DNA of 64,000 nucleotides from contig OZ246411.1 in NCBI GenBank assembly GCA_965231055.1, positions 665,875 through 729,874 on the forward strand. Direction: 5' to 3'. The DNA comes from an uncultured Candidatus Saccharibacteria bacterium (lineage in GTDB: Bacteria > Patescibacteriota > CALEFQ01 > G965231055). Shown piece by piece: positions 6,992-37,611 of this stretch (position 1 is the first letter of the stretch; each line of letters begins with the position of its first letter). Both the position numbers and the translations under genes were made by a program. Under the pieces are notes generated by a model. It searched no databases. It was not told where the DNA came from and saw only the letters and a list, made by a program, of their open reading frames with translations.

Positions 6992-8251
6992 CTAGTATGG
7001 CGGATACCCCGTAGTCATATATGAGAAGCTTTTACCTCCGGAAGAGGTTCTTACTATATTTATATTTGTGTAGAATGAATAGTGAAGGTGTGATCCCGTA
7101 CTAAATCCAGTAGAACCAACTCCACCTATCCTCTGCCCCTTAACAACTGATTGACCTTCGCCAACAGCAAAACTAGAAAGGTGAGCATATGCAGTATAAC
7201 CACCAAGTCCATCATGCTGAAGCACTATCCAATTACCCCATCCTGACGAACCGGTTCCAGTTGCCAAAACCTTACCGTTGGCAGTTGCCAAAACTGGAGT
7301 TCCAGTAGGAGCACCGAAATCTATTCCGTTGTGAAAATAGCATCCATTTATAACTGGATACACAGCCCAATCAACGCAACCATATCCTTGAGTCACATAT
7401 CCAGCTCCTCCTAATGGATGAGTAAAATCACCCTTGGACACAGATCCCGAAACAGGACCAGCCTGCAACAATGTTATGGTATTTTGAAGGCTATAAAGCT
7501 CCTGCCATAGTTTTGCCTCTTTTTCCTCAGCGGCGCTCTTGTAGCTCTTGTAGAGCTCTTCTTGTCCTTGCGTAGCATCAAGTAGTTCCTTTTGCTCTTG
7601 TCGTTTGGAATCAATTTCATTTACTTGGTCTTGTTGAGAACTTTTGAGACTAGATAGCTCATCTTTTTTTTGACTCATTTCATCCTTCTTGTTCGTAGCT
7701 TCTTTTCTAAGAGTGCTCAATTCTTTGATTTGAGAGGTTATATCGGATTGAATGCTTTCGTGTGTGGATTTACTTCTAAGGTAATTTGAGAGTGAAGAAT
7801 ATTTTAAAAATATTTCTACAAGAGAAGTCTTGGAGGTGTGATACATGGACCTAATGAGTTCTCGTAAACTCGCCTTGCCCCTCGTAATTTTGGCATTAGC
7901 TTCCTCGATTTCTTTCTCGGCAAGAGAAATCTCTGATTGAACTAATGACATTTCCGAGCCAGTCTGTTCTAGGGCAGATTGTGCAACTGATATTTGAGCA
8001 TTTATAGCATCAATTTCTTGCTGAATTGTATTTGCTTCATTGCGTTTCTCTTGGGCTTGCTCTGAATACTGACTTATTTGTGAATTCAATCTATCTATCT
8101 CTGATTGTTTTTTTGAAATTTGATCCTTTAGCTCGGTCACAGTTACTGCATTTACATCAAAAACAAACACAGAAAAACAAAAACACACCATCAATGATAG
8201 TATAGATGCCTTAAACCAAAATGACTTTTTGTTTTTATTTAATTTCATCAT
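6992..8251 (-). CDS. M23 family metallopeptidase with N-terminal coiled-coil (EnvC-like murein hydrolase activator/endopeptidase)
   Basis: Signal peptide, long Q/E/K-rich coiled-coil region, and a C-terminal M23/LytM domain (HNGIDFGAPTGTPV ... GSTGFSTGSHLHY). Confidence 0.8.
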   Translation of the reverse strand: MMKLNKNKKSFWFKASILSLMVCFCFSVFVFDVNAVTVTELKDQISKKQSEIDRLNSQISQYSEQAQEKRNEANTIQQEIDAINAQISVAQSALEQTGSEMSLVQSEISLAEKEIEEANAKITRGKASLRELIRSMYHTSKTSLVEIFLKYSSLSNYLRSKSTHESIQSDITSQIKELSTLRKEATNKKDEMSQKKDELSSLKSSQQDQVNEIDSKRQEQKELLDATQGQEELYKSYKSAAEEKEAKLWQELYSLQNTITLLQAGPVSGSVSKGDFTHPLGGAGYVTQGYGCVDWAVYPVINGCYFHNGIDFGAPTGTPVLATANGKVLATGTGSSGWGNWIVLQHDGLGGYTAYAHLSSFAVGEGQSVVKGQRIGGVGSTGFSTGSHLHYSFYTNINIVRTSSGGKSFSYMTTGYPPY

Positions 8252-15020: not shown

Positions 15021-15056
15021 AAACCCGCCTTCGAAAAGATCTGGCGGGTTTTTTAT
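15021..15056. terminator. Bidirectional rho-independent terminator
   Basis: AAACCCGCC ... GGCGGGTTT stem followed by TTTTT; lies between convergent genes. Confidence 0.6.
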
Positions 15057-24509: not shown

Positions 24510-24914
24510 ATGAAAAACTTTAATGCTAAACTCTTATCGGTATTGCTTGGGATTTTTGTTCTTTTGGCAATTGCTATCCCCTGTTTTTACGCCGTAGATA
24601 TTGCTGAGATCAATGCCTTTCTGTATCCATTGGGATGCGAACCGGGTCAGATAATCCCAATTTCAATGGTCATGCTGGGAATCATATCGGGAATAATTTT
24701 TGAAAAGATACTAGGAACGCAGAAACTCTCGGGATTCGTACTTGGTTTTTTCTCAGCTAGCATGGTCGTCACCCTATGCATATCAATCAATAATAACTGC
24801 GAAAAAGCACTGAAATCCATGGTTTTCATTCTGGTGTTTGTGTTCATTTTCTACATTACCGCCCTAATAAACGGGATAATCTCAAAAGAAAGTTCGTCGG
24901 AACACAAAGAATAG
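24510..24914 (+). CDS. Small polytopic membrane protein A (4 TM), unknown function
   Basis: 134 aa, highly hydrophobic. Strong SD GGGAGG 7 nt upstream. Own terminator downstream. Confidence 0.5.
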   Translation: MKNFNAKLLSVLLGIFVLLAIAIPCFYAVDIAEINAFLYPLGCEPGQIIPISMVMLGIISGIIFEKILGTQKLSGFVLGFFSASMVVTLCISINNNCEKALKSMVFILVFVFIFYITALINGIISKESSSEHKE

Positions 24915-24946
24915 AAGCGCATCACGAGAAGATCATTACAAGAAAT

Positions 24947-24980
24947 AGCGACTGGAAAAAAACCGGTCGCTTTTTATTTT
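24947..24980 (+). terminator. Rho-independent terminator after gene A
   Basis: AGCGACTGG-AAAAAAA-CCGGTCGCT followed by TTTTTATTTT. Confidence 0.6.
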
Positions 24981-25067
24981 ATCCTAGCGATTGACAAAAA
25001 AGAGATTTCTGATAGTTTTGCAGCATATCTGCTCATTTAAAAACCTTATCCGTAAAGGAGAAATGTC

Positions 25068-25781
25068 GTGAAAAATTTTATAACTCATTTGTCTCGAGTG
25101 ATTTGTGTTTTGATTCATCTCACGCTTCTGTCACTGGTTGGATTCTTCTATTTCAATAATTTTTATGCAGAAATAGTGGGAATCCTGTTATTCAGCTCGC
25201 TGGTATCTGGAATAATTTTTGGAAAATGGAAAGTTGCCACCTCTAGGGCAGCAATTTACTGCCTTATCATTCCAAATACCCTGTTGATCATTGGATTCAT
25301 CACAGCCCGATTAATCACTATCGAAACATCATTACTGAAAGCACTACCCTGTTTGGTTTTCACAGTCGCGATCACCACAATTTTGAATGTTTTTGGAATT
25401 ATCTGCCAAGAAATCCTAGAAAGAACGGTGCTAAGAGTTCTCAAGGCGTTACTGGTGTTTTGGCAATCGGGAATGATAATGATGTTCACTGAAATCGACG
25501 CCATCTTTTCCGTAATCACGGTCAACATGGTGGCTGCAATGTGCCTGGGAATAATTCTCGGAAATGCCAGAATATCGGAGTATAAAGAATTCGGACACCA
25601 GTTGCATGTATGGTATTACCCAGCAATAGTATTGTCTTCAATGCTATTAATCACCATTTCATGTCATTTATTTGGCATAAAATACCACTTCCACTACGGA
25701 ACAAATTTGGGTGTTCTCAGTTCTTTCATTTCAGGACTAGTGGGTTTGCTAGTATACAAACTCGTATCTCAAAAAACCTGA
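25068..25781 (+). CDS. Polytopic membrane protein B (~7 TM), unknown function
   Basis: 237 aa. GTG start preceded by AAAGGAG. A TTGACA -35-like element lies at 24991. Own terminator. Confidence 0.5.
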   Translation: MKNFITHLSRVICVLIHLTLLSLVGFFYFNNFYAEIVGILLFSSLVSGIIFGKWKVATSRAAIYCLIIPNTLLIIGFITARLITIETSLLKALPCLVFTVAITTILNVFGIICQEILERTVLRVLKALLVFWQSGMIMMFTEIDAIFSVITVNMVAAMCLGIILGNARISEYKEFGHQLHVWYYPAIVLSSMLLITISCHLFGIKYHFHYGTNLGVLSSFISGLVGLLVYKLVSQKT

Positions 25782-25800
25782 TAACAATTTTATCAAAGCA

Positions 25801-25831
25801 AGGTCATGCAAATATGCGTGACCTTTTTTAA
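25801..25831 (+). terminator. Rho-independent terminator after gene B
   Basis: AGGTCA [12-nt loop] TGACCT followed by TTTTTTAATAAT. Confidence 0.5.
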
Positions 25832-25919
25832 TAATCCTAAAAACTAGACATACCAATCTAAATTTGTTAGTTTCTAACCATCTGTTCCTTTTATAACCAA
25901 AAACGAGAGGGGGTGCCAA

Positions 25920-26612
25920 GTGAAATGGACAAAAATCATCGCGCTTGAGAAGAAAATCGTATTCGGAATTCTTTTGGCAGAGATCGCGCTATTATCACTT
26001 TCTGCCTACGCATCGACATACCTGGGGTGGAACTGGTTTGCAAGATTAATGATTTCTGCAATCATCGGTTTCACTGCGGGAATGATTGTGTCAAAAAAGA
26101 CAGACCAAGCAGATGCAACTATCAAGATGTTGATTGCTACGTCAATTATTCAGTTCGCAACCGGAATAATTCTATTATCAATGAAGTTCTGGCTAACAGG
26201 ATTGATGCAAGCTATTCCGGGAACAATAGCCATGGTAGTATCTTTCGTGGTTGGCACTGATCCCCATGAGAAAAAATGGAGATTGATAAGCTTATCGATT
26301 TCAGCAACCACTCCAATACTATTGAAACTACTCCTTGCACATACATACCTCACAATTTTGACACTGGTATTTATCTTCGCCTTGCACGGTATTACATTTT
26401 TAGAAATCTGGCGCAAGCGTAAAGAACCCTCCGAAAGAATCTCGATGTGTTGGTACTTGTTTTGGGCCTTCATGTCGATCATCTCATCAACAACGGCATT
26501 ATCAGAAAGATATGGAAGTGGGATGTTAGACTTAACCACCCTAGCACTAGGAACCGTGATTATGGCTATCACAGTTCAAATTACGAGATCATTGCCTCAA
26601 CAAAAACGCTAA
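25920..26612 (+). CDS. Polytopic membrane protein C (~7 TM), unknown function
   Basis: 230 aa. GTG start with GAGAGGGGGTG SD. Contains a YLGWNW motif in TM2, shared loosely with B and E. Confidence 0.5.
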   Translation: MKWTKIIALEKKIVFGILLAEIALLSLSAYASTYLGWNWFARLMISAIIGFTAGMIVSKKTDQADATIKMLIATSIIQFATGIILLSMKFWLTGLMQAIPGTIAMVVSFVVGTDPHEKKWRLISLSISATTPILLKLLLAHTYLTILTLVFIFALHGITFLEIWRKRKEPSERISMCWYLFWAFMSIISSTTALSERYGSGMLDLTTLALGTVIMAITVQITRSLPQQKR

Positions 26613-26633
26613 GCCACAGCTCTCTCGAAAATA

Positions 26634-26663
26634 AAGGATCCAATTGCGGATCCTTTTCTTTTA
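26634..26663 (+). terminator. Rho-independent terminator after gene C
   Basis: AAGGATCC-AATTGC-GGATCCTT followed by TTCTTTTAT. Confidence 0.6.
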
Positions 26664-26802
26664 TCATAATCACTAATTTCGAAGACGAACCAATAATACT
26701 ATTCTAAACAACCTATCTCAAATATTCACAATTTTTTATCCACTGGACAGAAGTACTGATTAGTAATAGTCTGGATTCAAAGGTGATCTTTTCACACGAA
26801 AA

Positions 26803-26830
26803 CAGCGCGACAAATCGCGGTGTTTTTTTC
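26803..26830 (+). promoter_or_regulatory. Terminator-like hairpin plus U-tract inside the 5' leader of gene D (possible attenuator)
   Basis: CGCGA-CAAA-TCGCG then GTGTTTTTTTC immediately 5' of the SD AAAAGGAGGA and the ATG at 26849. Gene C already has its own terminator at 26634. Confidence 0.3.
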
Positions 26831-26848
26831 AAAAGGAGGAGTTTTGCA

Positions 26849-27568
26849 ATGAGAAGGTATCTGAGTTCGGTGAAAAAATGGGCAAAAGTATTTGCCAAAG
26901 CGGTGGTTAGCCTCTGTTTTGCAGCCACACTTCTGGGTGTTGGGTTTATTTCTACTCACAGCCTCATACCGGAAATGGCATTGCCAATCATATTGTTGGC
27001 ACTTGCTGTTGGGTTTTTGACCGGCGGAAGATGTGAAGATATTACAAACATGGACACTCGAATTCCATGCGTAACCTTCATAGTCTCTATTTGCAGCTAT
27101 GCGGCATTTCAAAAAACCACACCGATGAGCGTCGAAAACGGAATTTCAGGAATATGCATGAGCCTAGTACTGGGGATTACGACAATACTCGGCATATACT
27201 TCAACCGAAAAATCAAACCAATGTTCTGGATATCGGCTATATCAATCATGCTTTTCTGGCAAACCTCGACTTTGCTCTACGCAGTAGCCCCTCTCTGGAT
27301 ACTAGGAATTGATGGAATAATCGCAGCAACTCTCGGTATATTTTTCGGAATACAAATAAACAACTTTAAACCAAAATCTATCAGATTTCGAACCAACCGA
27401 ACCATCACTGTCATTGCTGCATGCATAGCTGTTTTTGCCTCAAACTGGATTATCGGATCAAGATCAGGAAATAGCGATGTAGTTATGTCGCTCATAACAA
27501 CTGCAAGCTCACTTTCCGCAGGGCTTCTCACCTATTTCTCCACACGAAGAAAAAACAATGCTCATTAA
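26849..27568 (+). CDS. Polytopic membrane protein D (~7 TM), unknown function
   Basis: Start set at MRRYLSS: AGGAGG lies 8 nt upstream, and the longer ORF from 26783 lacks an RBS. 240 aa. Confidence 0.5.
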   Translation: MRRYLSSVKKWAKVFAKAVVSLCFAATLLGVGFISTHSLIPEMALPIILLALAVGFLTGGRCEDITNMDTRIPCVTFIVSICSYAAFQKTTPMSVENGISGICMSLVLGITTILGIYFNRKIKPMFWISAISIMLFWQTSTLLYAVAPLWILGIDGIIAATLGIFFGIQINNFKPKSIRFRTNRTITVIAACIAVFASNWIIGSRSGNSDVVMSLITTASSLSAGLLTYFSTRRKNNAH

Positions 27569-27584
27569 CTCAACAAAAACATAC

Positions 27585-27616
27585 ATAGCCCATCTCCCGG
27601 TGGGCTATATTCTTTT
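27585..27616 (+). terminator. Rho-independent terminator after gene D
   Basis: ATAGCCCA-TCTCCCGG-TGGGCTAT followed by ATTCTTTT. Confidence 0.55.
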
Positions 27617-27697
27617 AGTGGACTTTTTTTATGTGTTTTGATAGGCTCAAATTGTTCTTTAATAATTTGTTTTCAACTATTGAAAGGGGGTTTTGCT

Positions 27698-28357
27698 ATG
27701 CAATGGAATTCTATAATATTGATCATCTCTGTGCTCGTGATTATGCTATCTTCTGGCTTCATCGCTAACTACGTAGGCTGGGTGTCCGGACTTATTTCTA
27801 TTTCACTAGCTGCGATAGTGCTAGGAACATGGGCATCACCAAGAAAAGAGGCAAAAGAAGCAGGAGAAATGGAAGCGATAGCTATTGTAATTTTTGGAAC
27901 GATATTTTTGTTCATATTCAATCTCGTAACTGCAGTCATTTTGTGGTCTTGGTCGCTAGTCCTCTTTGGAATAATAAATGCGATTCTGTTCTTAATGTTC
28001 GCGATGCAAGGACTGACCGGAAACGACGAGATTCCGAATCGGAAAAACTTCATCATCGCGCTTGGATTCATTGTCACAGGCATAGTATTCCACGGCGAAA
28101 TCGAGCCAATGCTAATTTCTCATTTTATCCTGACAGTTCTACAAGCAAGAGAAATGATCTGGGAAAAAACAGGTTGCAACAGAATGACTATAGCCATCAC
28201 GTTCGGGGCGATATTTATAGCGAGCCAAATATTCTGCCTATCAAGCAGTGATCCGTATCTTTGGGCAAAGATAAGTATCCCCGAATCAGTCTTGGCAGCT
28301 TTTATCGGAGCAGCTGCTATGATCATTTCAAGTGTGGGATCAGCAGATCTCGCATAA
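27698..28357 (+). CDS. Polytopic membrane protein E (~7 TM), unknown function
   Basis: Start set at MQWNS with AAAGGGGG SD. A TTGATA-17-TAATAAT promoter-like element lies at 27639-27667. 220 aa. Confidence 0.5.
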   Translation: MQWNSIILIISVLVIMLSSGFIANYVGWVSGLISISLAAIVLGTWASPRKEAKEAGEMEAIAIVIFGTIFLFIFNLVTAVILWSWSLVLFGIINAILFLMFAMQGLTGNDEIPNRKNFIIALGFIVTGIVFHGEIEPMLISHFILTVLQAREMIWEKTGCNRMTIAITFGAIFIASQIFCLSSSDPYLWAKISIPESVLAAFIGAAAMIISSVGSADLA

Positions 28358-30496: not shown

Positions 30497-30646
30497 AAGG
30501 AGTGTCACGCTGTATAAGAATAATAATCAGTTTCAGTCAACGGAACTGTAAAAAACCCCATTTTATGTGTTTTTTCAGCTCTGTTCATTGAAAATTTGCG
30601 TGGAAACAATAACAACAATTTGCCTCAAAGAGGCAAGGAGGATGTC

Positions 30647-32563
30647 ATGGTAAAGCTTAATAACTTTTTTTTCGCTGTATTCACCGTTTGTTTGATTACA
30701 ACCCTTTTCCCCACAATTTCGTGGGCGACAAACTGCGACACACAAATCTCAATAAGTTTCGACCAGTGTCGCACAGGTTCAACAGCCGGCCTAAGTAATT
30801 ATCACGATTGCGGGGTTGGCCACGAAGGACCGGACCAGTGCTATAGGTTTACTATTTCGTCCACAACCACAATCAGATTTCGCGGAAAGGCTGATTTCGA
30901 TGCCGACTGGTCTATCGCAACTGAGTGTGGACCAGACATCGGCGATGTCCGATGCATCGATTTCACACAGGGCGGAAATCCGGACTTCAGCTGCGGAAGT
31001 TTCTCCGTGAATACTTACAGTATTATGGACGAGACAATTACACTGAATGCTGGATCATACAAGATTTGGGTCGACGGATACTATTCGTACTCGGATGGAA
31101 ATTATGCGCTCATGATTACAAACGAAAGCGCAACAAATACTCCAACCCGTACACCGACTCGAACTCCGACGAGAACGCCAACGCGTACTCCAACATCAGT
31201 TCCGCCAACCAATACCGCAACTCGGACACCGACACGGACACCCACAAGTGTACCTGCCACAAGCACGCCATTCCCAACAAACACTTCAGTTCCTCAGACA
31301 CACACACCCGCACCGACAAATACTCAAAGCCCCACAACACCCACACCATCCCCGATTCCAACGTGTTATAACAATGCATTGGAAAACCCGGGGTTTGAAA
31401 TGTGGGACGAGCCAGAACTTCCGCCAATGGAATGGATTCTTAGCAACCCTGAGGATTCATACGCAAGGATGGAGCCAGTCAATTATTATGACGGTGAATA
31501 TTCTTGCAGAATTGCTTGGTGGGATGCCACACATTCCATCTATCTTTCACAAGCTATGTCGATGATTCAGGGAACCGAATTGCATCTGCGGATAAAATAT
31601 CTCGATATGAATCCGCACGCCCACATTCAAATCAAGAATACATTTATCAACTCCGTGGGTGATAGTATCGGTGAATCCTGGAGCGAAGCATCTGCAACAA
31701 ATGCAGATTGGCAAACGCTCGAAATTTTCGTCATGGCTCCGCCGGGAACCGTGGCCTCTATCTTTTCGATCGAAGCCGAAGCAGATGTGCCGGAATATCA
31801 GGGTGAAACTTTCATAATCCTTGTGGACAATGCGGAAATTTGCAGTATATACCAGCACAGCCCGACACCAACACGAACCGCAACGCCCGTACCAACCAAT
31901 ACCGCTATACCGACAAACACTGCAACTCGGACACCGACACGTACACCAACGAGTGCATCCGCTACAAGCACACCGACAAGTACTCCGATTCCTGCAACTC
32001 GAACACCCACTCCGACAAATACACATAATCCTAACCCAACATCCACCCCAACAGTAATTCCTTCAACAAATACCCCGCACCACAATCCAACCTCAACACC
32101 CACTATCCAGCAACCTACGAATACCGCAATACCATACACACCGGAACCAACCCCGACAGCAGAATGCCCAGAGCTCGGAATCAGGATTCAAATGCCTGAT
32201 TTCACATCTCCCGGAGACCCGTTCTTTGTAACAGGTCACATCTGCAACACTGTCGGACACGAGTTTAAAGACATCATGGTGTTTTTTATCCTCGATGTTT
32301 ACGAGGATTACTGGTTTTGGCCAAGTTGGAGTCATTACGGTCTAAACGTAGGCGGAACGATCGACTACATTGTCCAAGATATCAATCAAGGACATGAGGA
32401 AGTTGACGTGATTCCAACCTTTTACTGGCCCGACACTGGTGACTTAGAAGCTCGTGGGTTGTCGATCTGGGGAGCACTTGTTGTTCAAGACGAAGATGGA
32501 GTATCACTCATCCTCGGAGAATTCGACAGACACAGCTTTGGCTTCGGACCCAATCCCAACTAA
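30647..32563 (+). CDS. Secreted multidomain protein: PPC (pre-peptidase C-terminal)-like domain, Thr-Pro linker, CBM4/9-like jelly-roll domain, second Thr-Pro linker, unknown C-terminal domain. Compositionally foreign (GC-rich).
   Basis: Start set at MVKLNNFFF with GGAGG 6 nt upstream. Signal peptide. PPC-like motifs [26 protein letters not shown] and [37 protein letters not shown] linkers. NPGFEMWDE...[12 protein letters not shown] resembles carbohydrate-binding-module family 4/9. GC content is visibly far above the flanking DNA. Confidence 0.6.
31141..31330 (+). repeat. Coding tandem/imperfect repeats encoding the first Thr-Pro-rich linker
   Basis: Iterated ACnCCnACnCGn units (TPTRTP). The segment GCAACTCGGACACCGACACGGACACCCAC recurs at 31918-31950. 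Confidence 0.7.
31861..32110 (+). repeat. Coding repeats encoding the second Thr-Pro-rich linker (internal duplication of linker 1)
   Basis: [15 protein letters not shown] is shared with linker 1, and the nucleotide identity is near-perfect over ~25 nt. Confidence 0.7.
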
Positions 32564-32665
32564 TCTCATCCACGCAAACGCTCTTGGGCCAACTGCTTTT
32601 TCAAAGTATGTTGGCCCTCGTTATTTTGAATGTCTCACTGTGAGATATTCAAAAATACGAGGAAA

Positions 32666-32698
32666 TAAAAAATACTCTGAAATTTACAGAGTATTTTT
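32666..32698. terminator. Strong bidirectional rho-independent terminator
   Basis: Perfect 12-bp stem AAAAATACTCTG/CAGAGTATTTTT with loop AAATTTA, between convergent genes. Confidence 0.7.
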
Positions 32699-32709
32699 TA
32701 AATTAGCGA

Positions 32710-33552
32710 TCAAGACATCGCTTTTAAAAATCTGTTAACATATTGAGATGGGATGGTTCTTCCCATAACTATATTCGGAGTAAAGTTTGGACCATGCCAG
32801 TCACTACCAGCTGTAATATATAGATCGAACATATTTGCGATAGACTTAATCATTTTTATCTCCTCATGAGTGTGTTTGGGAAAATACACTTCGATGCCTT
32901 TAAGACCAAGTTTAGCTAATTTTAGTATCATTTCTTTATAACTATCTAAACCCATATTTCTCAACTCCCTACCTGAATGAGCTAACACCGAAATACCCCC
33001 AGACTTACTAATCAAAGAGAAACTCTGTTCGGGCGTCATCATCCAAGAATCATCCTCAATAGTAAAAACATATCTTTTTAAGATTTCTTTAAGGGAAATA
33101 GATTGATTTAAGTGCTCTAAAACTAATCTAGCCAATGTATTCCTACTAACATATGCCTCATGATTTTTTTTGAGATTATTAAAATTCAAATTAATTCCTG
33201 GAAAAATCTTATTCAATTTTTTTATAATAGAGCGAGCCCTTTCGTTATACCCATTAATTGTACTAAACAAACCTTTGTTCAATAGTGACATATTAAGATT
33301 AGCACCGTAGCCCAACACATGCAAGGATTTTTTTATGCCAGATAATCTCAGGGTAGTAGAAATTTCAATACCGTTAATATATTTTATCCCACTATAACGC
33401 GCAAACTCTTTTGCTTCTTTGTTATTAGAAATAAAATTATGTTCAGTGATTGAAAAGACTGAAATATTTTGCTTCTTTGCTTCCTTAACCATTTGCAATG
33501 GCGACAATTCCCCATCAGAAAAATAAGAATGTGTATGTAGATCTATATACAT
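32710..33552 (-). CDS. PHP-domain metal-dependent phosphoesterase (TrpH/YciV-like)
   Basis: MYIDLHTHSYFSDGELSP...VFSITEHN matches the PHP motif DLHxHSxxSDGxxSP...TDH. VLAHSGR and DWHG are downstream His/Asp motifs. Confidence 0.65.
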   Translation of the reverse strand: MYIDLHTHSYFSDGELSPLQMVKEAKKQNISVFSITEHNFISNNKEAKEFARYSGIKYINGIEISTTLRLSGIKKSLHVLGYGANLNMSLLNKGLFSTINGYNERARSIIKKLNKIFPGINLNFNNLKKNHEAYVSRNTLARLVLEHLNQSISLKEILKRYVFTIEDDSWMMTPEQSFSLISKSGGISVLAHSGRELRNMGLDSYKEMILKLAKLGLKGIEVYFPKHTHEEIKMIKSIANMFDLYITAGSDWHGPNFTPNIVMGRTIPSQYVNRFLKAMS

Positions 33553-33609
33553 GTATTAATTATATCAAAAAAACTCTCGCTGTACTAATTAGTCCAACGA
33601 GAGTGTCAT

Positions 33610-34377
33610 TCAATAGCTTTTTAGTGAGCGACATATTGTCTGGTAGTTATTTTTAAATTGAACTCCGTGTAAAACCAGATTAAATAGGTTTTCATACCAA
33701 TTCATAAGAAGAACACCTCGCTCAAAGTCGATTGAACCCTTGCATGATATAAGAAACCCCATAGCTGAGGATGAATCTACGCCGTAAATTTCGTCAAATA
33801 GATTAAAGCACTTTTTGAGATTTGAAGGCGTAACCAAATAGGGGCTCTTGTGCTTACAAGCATAATAAGTAAGTGCATTACCAGGACCATGGAGCAGCTT
33901 ACTTACAAAAATTCTACCTTCTTCATTACTAAGTGACCTGATTAATTGTCTTCTGCATATTGTTCTATTGTCATGAAGTACATACGCGGTCAAGTCAGAA
34001 AAAGAAAACCAATGAGTTGAAGTACTTATTGAATTAATATTAAGATCCCCCTTAATATTAAATCCAAAGGTAAGCGATGGATTATACCTGGGATACCACA
34101 ATGGCGAATTAAGATCTACGAATTCGTCTTCCGTATGAACGACGAGATCTATATCTTGCTCTGTTTTTTTTGACAATATTTCTCGAGATCGTTTTAATGC
34201 AGAATAACAATCATGGCTTACAACACCGCAAGAACTAGACACGACCACGGCAATGTCCATGTCTACAGACGATTCATTATAGAGCCATGAACCATAAACT
34301 TTAGCACTTTGCAAGTATTTAATCTTACGCAATTCTATACCAACATCACGTAGAATATTCTTTTTCGTCTTATCCAT
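33610..34377 (-). CDS. Nucleotidyltransferase-fold protein (Pol-beta-like NTase domain + uncharacterised C-terminal domain)
   Basis: KVYGSWLYNESSVDMDIAVVV contains the GS...DxD motif. IDLVVHTEDEF supplies the third acidic residue. 255 aa, similar in size to KNTase/ANT enzymes but with unknown specificity. Confidence 0.5.
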   Translation of the reverse strand: MDKTKKNILRDVGIELRKIKYLQSAKVYGSWLYNESSVDMDIAVVVSSSCGVVSHDCYSALKRSREILSKKTEQDIDLVVHTEDEFVDLNSPLWYPRYNPSLTFGFNIKGDLNINSISTSTHWFSFSDLTAYVLHDNRTICRRQLIRSLSNEEGRIFVSKLLHGPGNALTYYACKHKSPYLVTPSNLKKCFNLFDEIYGVDSSSAMGFLISCKGSIDFERGVLLMNWYENLFNLVLHGVQFKNNYQTICRSLKSY

Positions 34378-34585
34378 AACATCCTCCTATGAAATAATTA
34401 TTAAAGAGCTGCTATTAGCGAAATTTATACACAAAAGCCACTAATAGCTTAATCATATAATACGATTAAACTACTTGATTTTAGGAAAAGAATCAAGTAT
34501 CATCTTTTAAGCAGTTTAATAACTCCCAATCCTTCTTTCACCACTATGTAGCTAATACTTCTCGCACTACTAGTTCATCTAATAA

Positions 34586-34708
34586 TCCGGGATCGTCTAA
34601 TGGCCTGCCTCGCATTGACGAGCAACGCGAGTCAAGGCGGGCCTGCCTCGCCTGAAGGATTTTGTGATATAGGGATGGTTTCTATTTTGCGAGTCAAGGC
34701 GGGTAGGA
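34586..34708 (+). pseudogene. tRNA-Gln 5' fragment (nt 1-19 and 20-27) split by a 97-bp GC-rich insertion; duplicate of the 5' end of the downstream intact tRNA-Gln
   Basis: AATAATCCGGGATCGTCTAATGG (34581-34603) matches AATAATCCGGGATCGTCTAACGG at 34755-34778. TAGGACAG (34701-34708) matches tRNA positions 20-27, after which the similarity ends. The insert carries the internal direct repeats CCTGCCTCGC and GCGAGTCAAGGCGGG. Confidence 0.45.
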
Positions 34709-34760
34709 CAGTTCGTTATAAATAACAATACTAGATAAATAGCATATATACATTGAATAA

Positions 34761-34834
34761 TCCGGGATCGTCTAACGGTAGGACAGTGGACTCTGGATCC
34801 ACTAATCTTGGTTCAAATCCAAGTCCCGGAGCCA
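34761..34834 (+). tRNA. tRNA-Gln (anticodon CUG), CCA encoded
   Basis: Manual fold: acceptor TCCGGGA/TCCCGGA, D-arm GTCT-AACGGTA-GGAC, anticodon arm GTGGA-CTCTGGA-TCCAC (CTG), variable TAAT, T-arm CTTGG-TTCAAAT-CCAAG, discriminator G, CCA. Confidence 0.85.
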
Positions 34835-34878
34835 GGGCTTCGCCTACGACTCTGTCGCGAGCTATGCCCTGTAAAAAA

Positions 34879-34900
34879 CCGCCCGTAAGGCGATTTTTTG
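34879..34900. terminator. Weak hairpin/U-tract terminator between tRNA-Gln (+) and ftsX (-)
   Basis: CGCC-CGTAA-GGCG followed by ATTTTTTG. Confidence 0.35.
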
Positions 34901-34906
34901 TTTGCG

Positions 34907-35818
34907 CTATTTGCTCAGATATCTACCTATCGCTATAGAACTGCTTATCACTCCGAACACAACTCCGCATCCGAGCAAGAACAAGAAAATCCAATGCAAA
35001 TTTGAAATGTAATAAGACATCAGATCGAGATTCCCGCTTCCAAAAAAGTTGGCAATTTTGGGAGTTGCAAAATGCAAAATTGGATAAAGAATTCCTGTGG
35101 TTATAATGCTCGCGAAAAATCCGTATAAAATTCCTTCAAATATAAATGGCCACCTGATAAACCAATTTGAAGCACCCACCAATCTCATAATACCTATTTC
35201 CTCTCTGTGAGAATAAATAGCAAGTCTCACAGTATTGAAAATAACTAGAATAGAAACTATCGCGAAAACACCGCTCACCACCAAAGCAATTTGCCTAGAA
35301 GTTCTAGTGATACGAGTAAGTCTCTCTATAATAGATTTATTGTCCGTGTAATCAACTTCACTTATCACGCCCTTGAAATCTTCTGGGTTTAGCTTCTGGT
35401 TTATTCCTTCGTAAGTATTTGGATTTTTTGCTTTGACCACCATAGAATTTTCTAGAGGATTTTCACCGAGCTCATCTATAGCTTCAAGTATTTCTTTTCT
35501 ACCTGCATTGTCTTTTCTAAATTCCTCTAGCCCCTCGTCTTTGGAAATAAAAATAGTAGAATCAACTTCACTAAAGCTTTCTACGTACTTTTGAACATTT
35601 TTCATTTGAGCGCTAGTGGCTTCGTCTTCAAAGTAAACTGTAATATCAACTTTCTTTTCTAGATCCTTGATAGTAAAATCACTGAGAAAGTTTAGAAGCC
35701 CCAGGCTACTTACTATAAATAGAGTAATCACCATGATTCCAGTGGTCGCCAAACTAACCAGAAGATTTCTCTTGAAGTTTTCAAATGCGAATTGAATGCC
35801 TCGTCCAAAATATCTCAC
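34907..35818 (-). CDS. ftsX: Cell division protein FtsX (ABC-transporter permease-like)
   Basis: Four-TM FtsX architecture with a large first extracellular loop. Conserved C-terminal region IGIMRLVGASNWFIRWPFIFEG. Immediately downstream of ftsE. Confidence 0.8.
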   Translation of the reverse strand: MRYFGRGIQFAFENFKRNLLVSLATTGIMVITLFIVSSLGLLNFLSDFTIKDLEKKVDITVYFEDEATSAQMKNVQKYVESFSEVDSTIFISKDEGLEEFRKDNAGRKEILEAIDELGENPLENSMVVKAKNPNTYEGINQKLNPEDFKGVISEVDYTDNKSIIERLTRITRTSRQIALVVSGVFAIVSILVIFNTVRLAIYSHREEIGIMRLVGASNWFIRWPFIFEGILYGFFASIITTGILYPILHFATPKIANFFGSGNLDLMSYYISNLHWIFLFLLGCGVVFGVISSSIAIGRYLSK

Positions 35819-35839
35819 TTTTTTGTATAATTTATATAA

Positions 35840-36532
35840 TTATAAAACGTATTTTCCTTCTTTTTGATCGCGTATCAATCTCCCCTTATCCATTGTGATA
35901 ACTCTTTTCTTTATCGTATTGATTATATCTTTGTTGTGAGTTACAAGTAGCGTAGTTGTGCCCATCTGATTGATCTTCATAATAAGCTCAATAATTTCCC
36001 AAGCATTGATAGAGTCTAGGTTACCAGTAGGCTCGTCCGCAATAAGAATTTTAGGTTCGTGAATCATGGCGCGCGCTATCGCAACTCTTTGCTTTTCTCC
36101 TCCGGAGAGTTGATTTGGAAAATGATCAGCTTCTTCCTTTAAACCTACCAAATCAAGCATCTTTGGTACTCTACTTTTTATTTCTTTATCAGTTAGTCCA
36201 CAAACTTGCATAGCGAAAGCGACATTTTCATAAGCTGTCTTTTTTTCTAGCAGTTTAAAATCCTGAAACACAACACCCACAGTTTTGCGAAGCTTTGGAA
36301 CTTGGCTTTTCTTTATACTGTCAATATTGAAATTATCAACCTTAACCGTTCCTTCATCTGGAAACTCCTCAGCTATCAAAAGTCTTACTAGAGTAGATTT
36401 GCCAGCGCCCGATTGACCCACCAAAGAAACAAACTCGCCTGATTCTATTTCAAAACTAACATCGTGGACAGATGGTCTCTTTGCCCCTTCATATTGTTTT
36501 GTTACATTTTCAAGTTTTATCATTGACATCAC
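35840..36532 (-). CDS. ftsE: Cell division ATP-binding protein FtsE
   Basis: Walker A GQSGAGKST, ABC signature LSGGEKQRVAIARA, Walker B ILIADEPTGNLD. Confidence 0.85.
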   Translation of the reverse strand: MMSMIKLENVTKQYEGAKRPSVHDVSFEIESGEFVSLVGQSGAGKSTLVRLLIAEEFPDEGTVKVDNFNIDSIKKSQVPKLRKTVGVVFQDFKLLEKKTAYENVAFAMQVCGLTDKEIKSRVPKMLDLVGLKEEADHFPNQLSGGEKQRVAIARAMIHEPKILIADEPTGNLDSINAWEIIELIMKINQMGTTTLLVTHNKDIINTIKKRVITMDKGRLIRDQKEGKYVL

Positions 36533-36545
36533 TTGTTATTTTATA

Positions 36546-37611
36546 CTAAAGCTGGTTTAATCGCAAAAAAGAATCCACAAATCCAGTTAGCTTACCTCCC
36601 AAAACCGCTTCAACATCCTTTTCTTCGTATTTTGTACGGTGATCTTTGACCAATTTATATGGATGGAGCACATAAGATCTGATTTGATTTCCCCATTCTA
36701 CAGAAATATGTTCCCCTTTCGCCTTTTTACGTTCTTTCTGAGCTAGCTCATACATACGCAGACCTATTTTTGAATACAATATCTTCATCGCCCTATCTTT
36801 GTTTTGAGCTTGAGATCTTTCAGACTGACAAGTAGCAACAAGCTTTGAGGGTAAATGAGTAATACGCACAGCCGAATCTGTCTTGTTTACATGCTGACCT
36901 CCGGCCCCTGAAGCTCTATAAGTATCTACTTTCAAATCCTTGGGATCTATTTCCACCTCAACCACATCTATCTCAGGAACTACTTCTACTAAAGCAAATG
37001 AAGTGTGTCTCGCCTTGTCTGCATCATAAGGTGAAATTCTAACAAGTCGGTGAACTCCTGATTCGGATTTGAGATATCCATACGCATTTACGCCAGTAAC
37101 CATAATTGAGGCGCTTTTGATTCCAGCTTCCATTCCCTTGTGTTCGTGTAAAACTGAAACGGAAAAACCTTTTTTGTCGGAATATCTCACGATCATCCTC
37201 ATAAGCATTTCGGCAAAATCCTGAGCATCTACTCCACCAGCTCCTGCAGAAAAAGATACTATCGCATTTCTTCGGTCATATTTCCCTGAAAAAAATGTTT
37301 CAATCTCTTTTTCATCAATTTTTTTTGCTAGTTCCGAAATTTCTTTTGAAGCATCCTCACCTGCTTTTTCAAATTCTTCGATAGCTTCAATTTCACCATC
37401 TAGCGTCTTCCAAAAACTCACCTGTTTTTTTAACGCTTCCAATTCCTGCATTTTCTTACTCGCCGAAGCATGATTATCCCAAAAACCAGGACTCACAGTT
37501 TCTTCTTCTATTTGTTTTATCTCTTTTTCTTTCTGATCAAGGTCAAAGACAGTCCTTAACCGAGAGCACTTTTTTCTTTATATCGTCTATCTGTTTGTTT
37601 GTATTTTCCAT
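36546..37611 (-). CDS. prfB: Peptide chain release factor 2, with programmed +1 ribosomal frameshift (ORF1 37611..37546, +1 shift at CUU UGA C, ORF2 37544..36546)
   Basis: Upstream frame reads MENTNKQIDDIKKKVLSVKDCL then UGA. The +1 frame continues DLDQKEKEIKQIEEETVSPGFWDN into the RF2 body, which has SPYDADKARHTSFA and GGQ (GAGGQHVNKTDSAVR). An SD-like AAGGA lies upstream of the CUU UGA C shift site. Confidence 0.8.
37542..37548 (-). promoter_or_regulatory. RF2 autoregulatory +1 frameshift site CTT TGA C
   Basis: Reverse complement of GTCAAAG at 37542-37548. In-frame UGA after codon 22 with an SD-like AAGGAC upstream, matching the classical prfB frameshift context. Confidence 0.75.

Follow-up and report, generated by a model that had tools for sequence, protein, structure and literature searches.

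A hairpin-laden tRNA-Gln relic beside an intact tRNA-Gln gene in a Candidatus Saccharibacteria genome

A 64,000-nucleotide stretch of a contig from an uncultured Candidatus Saccharibacteria bacterium (OZ246411.1, positions 665,875 to 729,874), here called the window, contains an intact tRNA-Gln gene and, a short distance upstream, a truncated second copy of its 5′ part that is interrupted by a GC-rich insert. We suggest that this stub (34576–34712) is probably the non-functional remnant of a tRNA-Gln gene that was duplicated or replaced, and that mobile mini-hairpins have invaded it. A hairpin-laden tRNA relic beside an intact copy is a repeated outcome in Patescibacteria. All positions are those of the 64-kb window unless an L-number is given; L-numbers denote the other contigs and loci with which it was compared.

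An interrupted tRNA-Gln stub upstream of the intact gene

An earlier note on this DNA, made from the sequence alone, had described a duplicated tRNA-Gln 5′ fragment upstream of the intact gene. Indeed, the 23-mer AATAATCCGGGATCGTCTAATGG at 34581–34603 occurs a second time at 34756–34778 with a single T/C mismatch, where shuffled sequences give an expectation of 0. In register, the repeat spans 28 nt (34576–34603 versus 34751–34778; 89% identity) and comprises 10 nt of upstream flank and tRNA positions 1–18, rather than the 6 nt and positions 1–19 first described. The tRNA sequence picks up again after the insert, as had been seen, although from position 19 instead of 20: GGTAGGACAGT at 34702–34712 equals 34777–34787, and the likeness ends at linear position 27. 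The stub lacks anything past position 27 and cannot encode a tRNA; it is almost certainly non-functional.

The insert, initially given as 97 bp, measures exactly 100 nt (34604–34703) and interrupts the D-loop between G19 and U20; with GG at both ends, its boundary is uncertain by 2 nt. It consists of two tandem units of 38 nt (34604–34641) and 62 nt (34642–34703), each built as CCTGCCTCGC-centre-GCGAGTCAAGGCGGG. CCTGCCTCGC starts at 34604 and 34642 (the second copy had been placed at 34653) and GCGAGTCAAGGCGGG at 34627 and 34689 (not 34628 and 34688). The direct repeats and terminal inverted repeats of the earlier description are thus present, but represent the arms, left and right, of two hairpin units in tandem. 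Each unit is an imperfect palindrome, with CCTGCC/GGCGGG and TCGC/GCGA pairs and a GTCAA bulge; in an alternative register of unit 1, TTGAC is paired with GTCAA. The intact tRNA-Gln gene serves as an internal empty site, and the insert is therefore bounded exactly as CCTGCC...GGCGGG, twice. Comparing the filled stub with this empty site revealed no target duplication beyond the ambiguous GG. The features of the locus are listed below, with scores from a covariance model (R1) that was built for the family of hairpin units and run without filters on the window.

34576..34585, + strand: duplicated 10-nt upstream flank CATCTAATAA; 8/10 match to 34751–34760 (CATTGAATAA)
34586..34603, + strand: relic tRNA-Gln linear positions 1–18, covering the acceptor 5′ strand, the D-stem 5′ strand and the D-loop through G18 G19; 17/18 identical to the intact gene
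34604..34641, + strand: mini-element unit 1 (38 nt), CCTGCCTCGC-ATTGACGAGCAAC-GCGAGTCAAGGCGGG; model R1 54.8 bits, E 1.3e-8
34642..34703, + strand: mini-element unit 2 (62 nt), same arms; model R1 42 bits, E 3.7e-6
34704..34712, + strand: relic tRNA-Gln linear positions 19–27 TAGGACAGT, covering the D-loop end, the D-stem 3′ strand and the first bases toward the anticodon stem; in-register match to the intact gene
34713..34760, + strand: AT-rich spacer/leader (48 nt) between relic and intact gene
34761..34834, + strand: intact tRNA-Gln, anticodon CTG, CCA encoded; ARAGORN; Rfam RF00005 61.8 bits
34876..34902, no strand assigned: GC hairpin between an A-run and a T-run, AAAAAACCGCCCGTAAGGCGATTTTTTG; picked out by eye from the sequence

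Unit 1 folds as DNA with −8.4 kcal/mol on the plus and −10.3 kcal/mol on the minus strand, and its arms are the same as at 32 genomic loci (see below). The centre of unit 2 is a 37-nt, AT-rich segment with a small hairpin of its own inside. Only the final ~10 nt of the spacer (34713–34760) resemble the flank upstream of the relic, and promoter-like matches in the spacer/leader were not above chance, rendering the promoter scan uninformative. The hairpin at 34876–34902 is likely a bidirectional terminator common to tRNA-Gln and the convergent ftsX gene, judging from its layout between the two runs; a terminator scan did not flag it. An independent Logan assembly (SRR10912417, L035), a separate assembly of possibly the same sample, is 100% identical over 30610–37377.

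At the gathering threshold, Rfam found only tRNA(s) in the whole window and no other family at the locus; at E ≤ 10, it returned only the intact tRNA between 34400 and 34950. Several readings of the layout were rejected. A simple tandem duplication, which would have a 75-nt period once the insert is removed, is contradicted on both sides: the 38 nt that come after the stub show no relation to tRNA positions 28–65, and of the 48 nt ahead of the stub only the last ~10 match the spacer. Readings of the 5-nt GTCAA bulge as part of a K-turn, an integron attC site or a bulge-helix-bulge were discarded upon inspection of the consensus, without a dedicated tool. Derivation of the arms from a conserved RNA (RNase P, signal recognition particle [SRP] RNA, rRNA or a T-arm) was likewise dismissed, as the window holds no other copy and the resemblance to SRP RNA is too weak.

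The insert units belong to a dispersed family of palindromic mini-elements

A search for copies of the insert elsewhere, as the earlier note had recommended, uncovered a dispersed family. Scanning one genome per GTDB species with the pattern CCTGCCTCGC-N8-38-GCGAGTCAAGGCGGG, with exact arms required, yielded 32 loci, mostly labelled Patescibacteria. The lineage labels comprise Saccharibacteria, Nomura-, Ryan-, Wildermuth-, Komeili-, Falkow-, Zambryski- and Moranii-bacteria, Paceibacterota and Minisyncoccia. Five element-bearing contigs carry a "Gammaproteobacteria" label; in the one tested (L034), UvrB is 77–81% identical to Patescibacteria proteins. The bin label of this "uncultured Gammaproteobacteria" metagenome-assembled genome (MAG; L034, CAZFZQ010000050.1) and, by extension, of L013, L015, L023 and L033 is probably wrong, and we therefore do not trust the WOR-3, Bacteroidia, Melioribacter and Pirellulales labels either, nor the cross-phylum spread they imply.

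Unit centres vary freely in length and sequence. Minimal forms comprise 22–27 nt (e.g. CCTGCCTCGCCGGCAAGGCGGG), units are nested in the centre of another unit in L006, L022 and L025, and tandem units occur in the window, L003 and L007. About 19 copies lie in open frames of at least 150 aa and all of these have a length of 3n, for which the chance is ~1e-9 (19/19); copies that are not 3n are intergenic, beside tRNAs or in a metK leader. The hosts are unrelated housekeeping genes, encoding GatB, TopA, the RecR zinc finger, UvrB, IF-2, GlyS, MurF, HisRS, an aminoacyl-tRNA synthetase N-terminus, a deoxyhypusine-synthase-like protein, YebC, RuvX and S16. Coding copies are found in both orientations and several frames, giving rise to peptides such as PASP..ASQGG, ARLDS..ARQV, NLPRV..SRVKAG and PALTR..STRGR. 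PDB homologues of GatB (3al0_B) and RecR (3vdp_A) are gapped exactly at the element-encoded peptide. Among close UvrB homologues, 105/106 present an empty site (an uninterrupted 24-residue segment), the 20-aa insert being confined to L034.

An identical 54-nt unit resides in two different genes of one MAG (L015 2837–2890, L033 1138–1191), and copies were found on two or three contigs of the same MAG for JAGMCI01, JAZDPK01 and CAZIZQ01. By these comparisons, the elements are insertions, at least some of them recent, that are tolerated when translated, and the sequences point to a small, rare family of palindromic insertion elements dispersed through Patescibacteria. No consistent flank repeat emerged among 34 loci. 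Identity of arms relative to flanks in orthologous insertions was unusable as evidence for selection, as the loci had been chosen for exact arms. We found no published description of the arm sequence, or of palindromic or in-frame elements in Candidate Phyla Radiation (CPR)/Patescibacteria, in a literature search that covered few subscription papers and hence is weak evidence; the mini-palindrome family appears undescribed.

Two side observations concern hairpins of similar appearance. At L003 4533–4659, two mini-elements in tandem (24 + 31 nt) adjoin a tRNA-Cys gene at its 5′ end, their terminal GG being tRNA positions 1–2; this tRNA-Cys is apparently intact, and the insertion coincides with its RNase P cleavage site. 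In the window, the sole other, weak R1 match (13 bits) is a GC hairpin at 15024–15048, CCCGCC-N11-AAGGCGGG, bordered by an A-run on one side and a T-run on the other; its appearance is that of an ordinary bidirectional terminator outside the family.

tRNA relics beside intact tRNA genes at other loci

Only one moderately close relative was found, L001, whose FtsX is 74% identical to that of the window. It carries a decayed relic of tRNA positions 1–18 (15/18 matches) 41 nt upstream of its tRNA-Gln gene, without hairpins. JGI metagenomes scanned with a D-arm 20-mer common to the window and L001 provided 120 tRNA-Gln loci. In an ARAGORN-plus-BLAST survey of 122 tRNA-Gln genes, a 5′ relic lay within 400 nt upstream of ten (10/122) and a 3′ relic downstream of seven (7/122). 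An extra copy of positions 1–18 is present at most 400 nt upstream in L037, L057, L080, L082, L099, L110 and L143 and, in weaker form, in L074 and L084; control scans (downstream, reverse-complement) reached at most 12/18 matches. Relics also accompany other tRNAs of the same loci (Thr, Trp, Asp, Phe, Lys). No relic was seen at 109 complete tRNA-Gln genes on viral contigs, searching the whole of 118 metagenomic loci revealed none farther than ~400 nt from its tRNA, and Rfam reported only tRNAs on 16 relic-bearing loci.

At four of these loci (L080, L082, L099, L143), a complete tRNA-Gln gene sits inside a disrupted older tRNA-Gln gene, the outer 3′ remainder of which resumes afterwards. The nested inner genes carry a 24–64 nt leader and a 15–40 nt trailer. 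In L082, the inner and outer acceptor stems differ by compensatory changes (TGTCGGA/TCCGGCA versus TGGGAGA/TCTCCCA), and the inner copy therefore came from another lineage. As L080 has 63% GC, nesting is not limited to AT-rich CPR genomes.

The relics bear GC-rich hairpins, often two adjacent ones. In gapped alignments, all nine independent hairpin insertion sites fall in loop-coding positions, with a chance estimated at ~3e-4:

D-loop sites: window, L143, L099, L057
Anticodon-loop sites: L037, L057, L143
Variable-loop site: L057 tRNA-Thr
T-loop site: L021 tRNA-Thr

L143 and L099 resemble the window in having two D-loop hairpins and a break at position 26–28. In L099 and L037, a hairpin-bearing segment stands on both sides of the new copy, and the hairpins therefore preceded the new copy there. 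L037, L057 and L143 share the ftsX-tRNA-Gln neighbourhood, and their FtsX proteins are similar to that of the window.

We could find no published account of tRNA genes nested in older copies, of loop-restricted hairpins in tRNA relics or of tRNA relics in CPR, with few subscription papers covered. In-place tRNA replacement and the mini-palindrome family are apparently two undescribed regularities.

Several loci present additional arrangements. In L057, the region 541–906 around a tRNA-Thr gene (711–786) holds several relic layers on both sides, each split by GC-rich hairpins, such as CCTGCCCGCCAGTCGCCAGGCG in an anticodon loop; relics are found on this contig at tRNA-Trp (1247–1320) and tRNA-Gln (7804–7878) as well. 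A recurrent, ~31–32-nt two-hairpin module, TCCGCCGAAGGACGGA + CTCGCCTCGGGCGAG and variants, was located in L037 (oriented) 2393–2423, L057 7474–7539 and L021 480–511, unrelated contigs in which it sits in the anticodon loop of tRNA-Gln relics or the T-loop of a tRNA-Thr relic. This module is a second mini-palindrome family, distinct from that of the window.

In L082 (oriented; 1121–1237), the inner tRNA-Gln gene lies between CCTGCCCGCC... and ...GCAGGCGGG, the ends of which resemble the window arms CCTGCC/GGCGGG; CCTGCCCGCC also borders the L057 relics (Gln, Thr, Trp). By sequence, these flanks may represent a palindrome with the tRNA as cargo, or an insertion into a palindrome centre. Lastly, L098 (oriented; 1310–1400) exhibits a T-arm/3′-acceptor-like segment, followed after ~10 nt by tRNA-Gln positions 1–27 and then non-tRNA sequence, which could be a permuted or rearranged tRNA relic.

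Origin of the interrupted stub

Our preferred explanation, a decayed tRNA-Gln copy colonized by hairpins, would involve two processes. The hairpin family would act as a selfish insertion element, entering unrelated target sites, with coding copies surviving only if their length is 3n and they are read through; in tRNA genes, the element and similar hairpins would persist only in loops of copies that already are, or thereby become, redundant. A DNA segment with a fresh 5′ part or a whole tRNA-Gln would have been inserted into, or recombined with, the resident gene, i.e. replaced it in place; the fresh copy may enter a damaged resident gene when a break is repaired or when incoming DNA recombines with it. 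The nested loci and the foreign L082 allele agree with such an insertion. The window hairpins, confined to the stub, may have arrived after the duplication or may themselves have been the lesion that made the copy dispensable. The stub would be tolerated because the intact copy supplies the function, and the relic is probably co-transcribed as a leader and discarded by RNase P.

A number of observations weigh against this explanation. No outer 3′ remainder follows the intact tRNA in the window, so that nested replacement is a model taken over from other loci. With 8/10 positions matching, the upstream flanks suit a local duplication or an attachment-site (att) core equally well. As to the hairpins, the fold of unit 2 is no better than that of shuffled sequence, and the family is rare: R1 finds only the two tandem copies in the 64 kb and matches none in 553 kb of other tRNA-Gln loci, and the exact-arm pattern is absent from 2.9 million viral contigs. 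We saw no transposition and found neither a transposase nor a target-site duplication or a consensus of target sites. The identity of the arms (25/25) is partly due to ascertainment because the scan demanded exact arms; arm variants occur, so the arms do drift. Finally, the taxonomy of the host MAGs is unreliable and leaves the true host range uncertain.

The foremost alternative, which we consider unlikely, is the attL/attR duplication already put forward in the earlier note. An element with an attP site that included the tRNA-Gln 5′ part (about −10..+27) would have integrated, generating attL (the stub) and attR (the rebuilt gene); its interior would later have been deleted to 38–48 nt, and the hairpins would have landed in the stub afterwards. 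The duplicated block has the make-up of such a core, 10 nt of upstream flank and tRNA 1–27, and in two viral contigs, L189 and L270, integrases (PHROG 1, E 9e-18 and 8e-37) adjoin a stretch holding only tRNA-Gln positions 1 to ~27–30; similar 5′ fragments exist in L238 and L269. A difference in the upstream gene neighbourhood between the window and L001 would also agree with past integration.

What was found between and around the repeats does not fit. A direct repeat is present, but its copies are 48 nt apart and flank no integrase-encoding element, there is no integrase or phage gene between them or within ~10 kb, and in 118 metagenomic loci all relics are at most ~400 nt from the tRNA. Nor is there support for tying the 24.5–34.7 kb block, which had been regarded as accessory, to the fragment as an island: the block is situated upstream of the stub and not in the interval between the repeats, contains no integrase and includes a core rluB-like gene. 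Furthermore, the four nested cases possess a complete inner tRNA and an outer 3′ part and therefore are not products of att recombination, with which these loci are incompatible. Described tRNA-targeting integrases reportedly displace the 3′, not the 5′, part of the gene (Williams, 2002), which we also count against an att scar. Within the window, insertion of a fresh copy and an att scar are not separable because no outer 3′ remainder survives.

L189 and L270 are GC-richer viral contigs in which the tRNA-Gln fragment may mark either an attP or a junction; the regions L189 10491–11766 and L270 4878–6064 suggest integrative elements that make use of the tRNA gene's 5′ part instead of its 3′ part. 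In L192, a complete tRNA-Gln(UUG) of very different sequence is preceded, at a distance of 12 nt, by such a 5′ fragment.

A homing cassette is a more doubtful origin. Here, a small GIY-YIG gene together with its own tRNA-Gln copy would cut the loop-coding region of the resident gene and be copied in, turning the resident gene into a relic; the nuclease gene would then decay, leaving a short spacer. As the incoming tRNA restores the target, repeated invasion and nested genes would follow. In L057 (7451–7795), such a GIY-YIG open reading frame (ORF; PF01541, E 8.5e-10) is situated exactly in the interval that separates relic and intact tRNA-Gln, a C-terminal GIY-YIG remnant occupies the same position in L037, and a full copy is found downstream of tRNA-Gln in L079. 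The multiple nested layers of the L057 tRNA-Thr and the origin of the L082 inner copy in another lineage would be accommodated as well, and GIY-YIG-encoding, non-intron insertions are known from rRNA genes of CPR bacteria (PMC11270868). The association is weak, though, with a nuclease beside tRNA-Gln in only 3 of ~120 loci, and the 64-kb window contains no GIY-YIG ORF. The candidate proteins comprise ~80–90 aa. In addition, the window relic and intact copy are almost identical (27/28), such that a foreign donor is not required.

Very little speaks for a functional leader, in which the stub and hairpins would be co-transcribed and kept under selection as a tRNA-like decoy or a processing/regulatory structure. 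The D-stem on the plus strand closes over both hairpins (−48.5 kcal/mol, z −2.1), and L001 also has an upstream near-copy of positions 1–18. Yet this z-score is modest, there is no match to any Rfam family, the insert is missing from L001, the hairpins are generic and also occur within coding genes in both orientations, and other relics have unrelated hairpins, other spacing and other break points.

Least credible of all are an intron-containing, split or permuted tRNA gene, the first of which had been another of the original proposals, and an assembly artefact: while the insert lies within a tRNA loop like non-canonical archaeal introns, the stub is not followed by a 3′ half, with anticodon arm, T arm and 3′ acceptor strand all missing, ARAGORN set to allow introns of at most 300 nt reports the intact gene only, the Rfam intron/ribozyme search is empty and there is neither a bulge-helix-bulge motif nor a group I/II signature, and the independent assembly is identical, with a spacer of unique sequence rather than a graph loop.

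Beyond the window, the relic-as-replaced-copy explanation can be generalized, at a level of confidence that we regard as tentative. In Patescibacteria, as well as in at least one GC-rich bacterium (L080), tRNA genes may be replaced in place repeatedly: GC-rich mini-palindromes, often as two-hairpin modules, would enter specifically the stretches that code for loops, and a cassette with a complete new copy of the same tRNA, sometimes with a small GIY-YIG gene, would follow into the damaged gene, giving rise to "Russian-doll" genes. The window stub would then be one decayed layer, and its insert would stem from an undescribed, lineage-wide family of 24–62-nt elements that is also tolerated in essential proteins.

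Comparison with known mobile and tRNA-associated elements

The closest parallel in behaviour may be drawn to the Rickettsia palindromic elements (RPEs), palindromes translated in frame that were reportedly described by Ogata et al. in 2000 and are mentioned in a review of miniature inverted-repeat elements (PMC10969869). Like RPEs, the mini-elements are palindromes that are in frame and translated in coding genes, that are also seen in RNA genes and between genes, and for which no transposase is known; both reside in bacteria that depend on a host and have small, AT-rich genomes. In-frame insertions absent from homologues are found in the family, the window copies themselves being non-coding, and the likeness is one of behaviour. 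In contrast, RPEs are ~100–150 bp long, with tens to hundreds of copies in a single genus, whereas units of the window family are 24–62 nt, GC-rich and detected ~0–3 times per genome, with the same arms across many Patescibacteria lineages.

Small dispersed repeats (SDRs) were reportedly introduced by Elhai et al. in 2008; we know of no description of loop-specific insertion into tRNA relics for them. These cyanobacterial repeats (cited in PMC3116915) are imperfect palindromes of 21–27 nt that nest, lack an obvious target duplication and a known means of mobilization and insert also into genes, all of which resembles the present family, but they are abundant and restricted to heterocystous cyanobacteria. 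The family has minimal, 22–27-nt and nested forms and no target-site duplication, a similarity of behaviour only.

Repetitive extragenic palindromic (REP) sequences and REPINs are extragenic, high-copy and species-specific, with a GTAG or CGTC tag and a RAYT gene (PMC3116915; PMC3733652). Short imperfect palindromes, a bulge giving strand asymmetry and tandem pairs are common to both, but arms of the mini-elements start with CCTG and end with CGGG, and many copies are intragenic. No RAYT gene was seen in the sequences examined. A miniature inverted-repeat element in a duplicated tRNA fragment, the remaining proposal of the earlier note, came nearest to our result, as the insert consists of two members of a palindromic element family that is dispersed; the units are far below the size of classical miniature inverted-repeat transposable elements, and neither a target-site duplication, a cognate transposase nor an insertion sequence with these ends was found.

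tRNA-targeting integrative elements leave a direct repeat of part of the tRNA beside the intact gene. In those systems a 3′ duplication flanks kilobases of DNA with an integrase, whereas in the window a 5′ duplication has 48 nt between its copies, and the other loci hold whole tRNA genes nested in older ones. SegB of phage T4 is a free-standing GIY-YIG homing endonuclease in the phage tRNA cluster that promotes the inheritance of its own tRNA region; to our knowledge, no relic or nesting of tRNA genes has been described for it. A small GIY-YIG gene beside tRNA genes is the shared feature, but here it occurs at three loci only, and the window has no nuclease gene.

rRNA genes of CPR bacteria contain many short (<200 bp), ORF-less insertions along with GIY-YIG- or LAGLIDADG-encoding ones, for which a cycle of gain, decay and loss has been proposed (PMC11270868). 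Those interrupted genes stay functional; in the window, the interrupted copy is a truncated pseudogene and the intact copy does the work. Searching the text of that paper turned up neither tRNA nor hairpins.

Genomic setting of the locus

Downstream of tRNA-Gln lie ftsX (34907–35818, − strand), ftsE, prfB and nth; the best matches of FtsX are in Patescibacteria. The upstream side is occupied by a nucleotidyltransferase-like gene, a PHP-domain gene, an rluB-like gene, genes for secreted repeat proteins and a set of five membrane-protein paralogues. Neither an integrase nor a transposase was seen within ~10 kb, and the local GC content is unremarkable apart from the Pro/Thr-repeat gene. This gene (30596–32563, + strand) encodes a 655-aa secreted protein with long Pro/Thr (PTRT/PTNT) repeat tracts and a local GC peak of 0.48, and has no Pfam match. 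The five successive genes at 24510–28357 (+ strand) encode paralogous-looking multi-pass membrane proteins of 134–261 aa, also with no Pfam match. prfB has a classical CTTTGAC +1 frameshift site at 37542–37548 (− strand), upstream of the ORF at 36546–37496, and RF2 is therefore listed as an N-terminally truncated, GTG-started ORF.

L001 retains prfB-ftsE-ftsX but has an additional gene between ftsX and tRNA-Gln, and its upstream neighbour is not that of the window; the comparison of the locus among relatives that had been called for thus showed a differing upstream neighbourhood and no hairpin insert in the one relative available. In L037, L048, L057, L079, L084, L131, L143 and L145, ftsX lies directly upstream of tRNA-Gln in the same orientation, whereas tRNA-Gln is convergent with ftsX in the window and in L001. 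Given this contrast in gene order, tRNA-Gln therefore seems to have been inverted or re-inserted in the window lineage.

Implications

For the window alone the consequence is modest, an inert relic. If our explanation is correct, the wider observations would describe a new family of selfish palindromes that are translated in essential proteins, are far smaller than RPEs and are found across deeply diverged, ultra-small bacteria, and they would raise the question of what holds 25 nt of arm sequence constant. Hairpin loops would be the insertion target both in tRNA genes and in the elements themselves, a mechanistic clue. The layout would also explain pseudo-tRNA stubs that annotation pipelines overlook or that are taken for prophage att sites. 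Finally, it would bear on the ways in which a reduced genome with single-copy tRNA genes survives insertions into these genes, or is exploited by them, with the GIY-YIG proteins as candidates for the nuclease.

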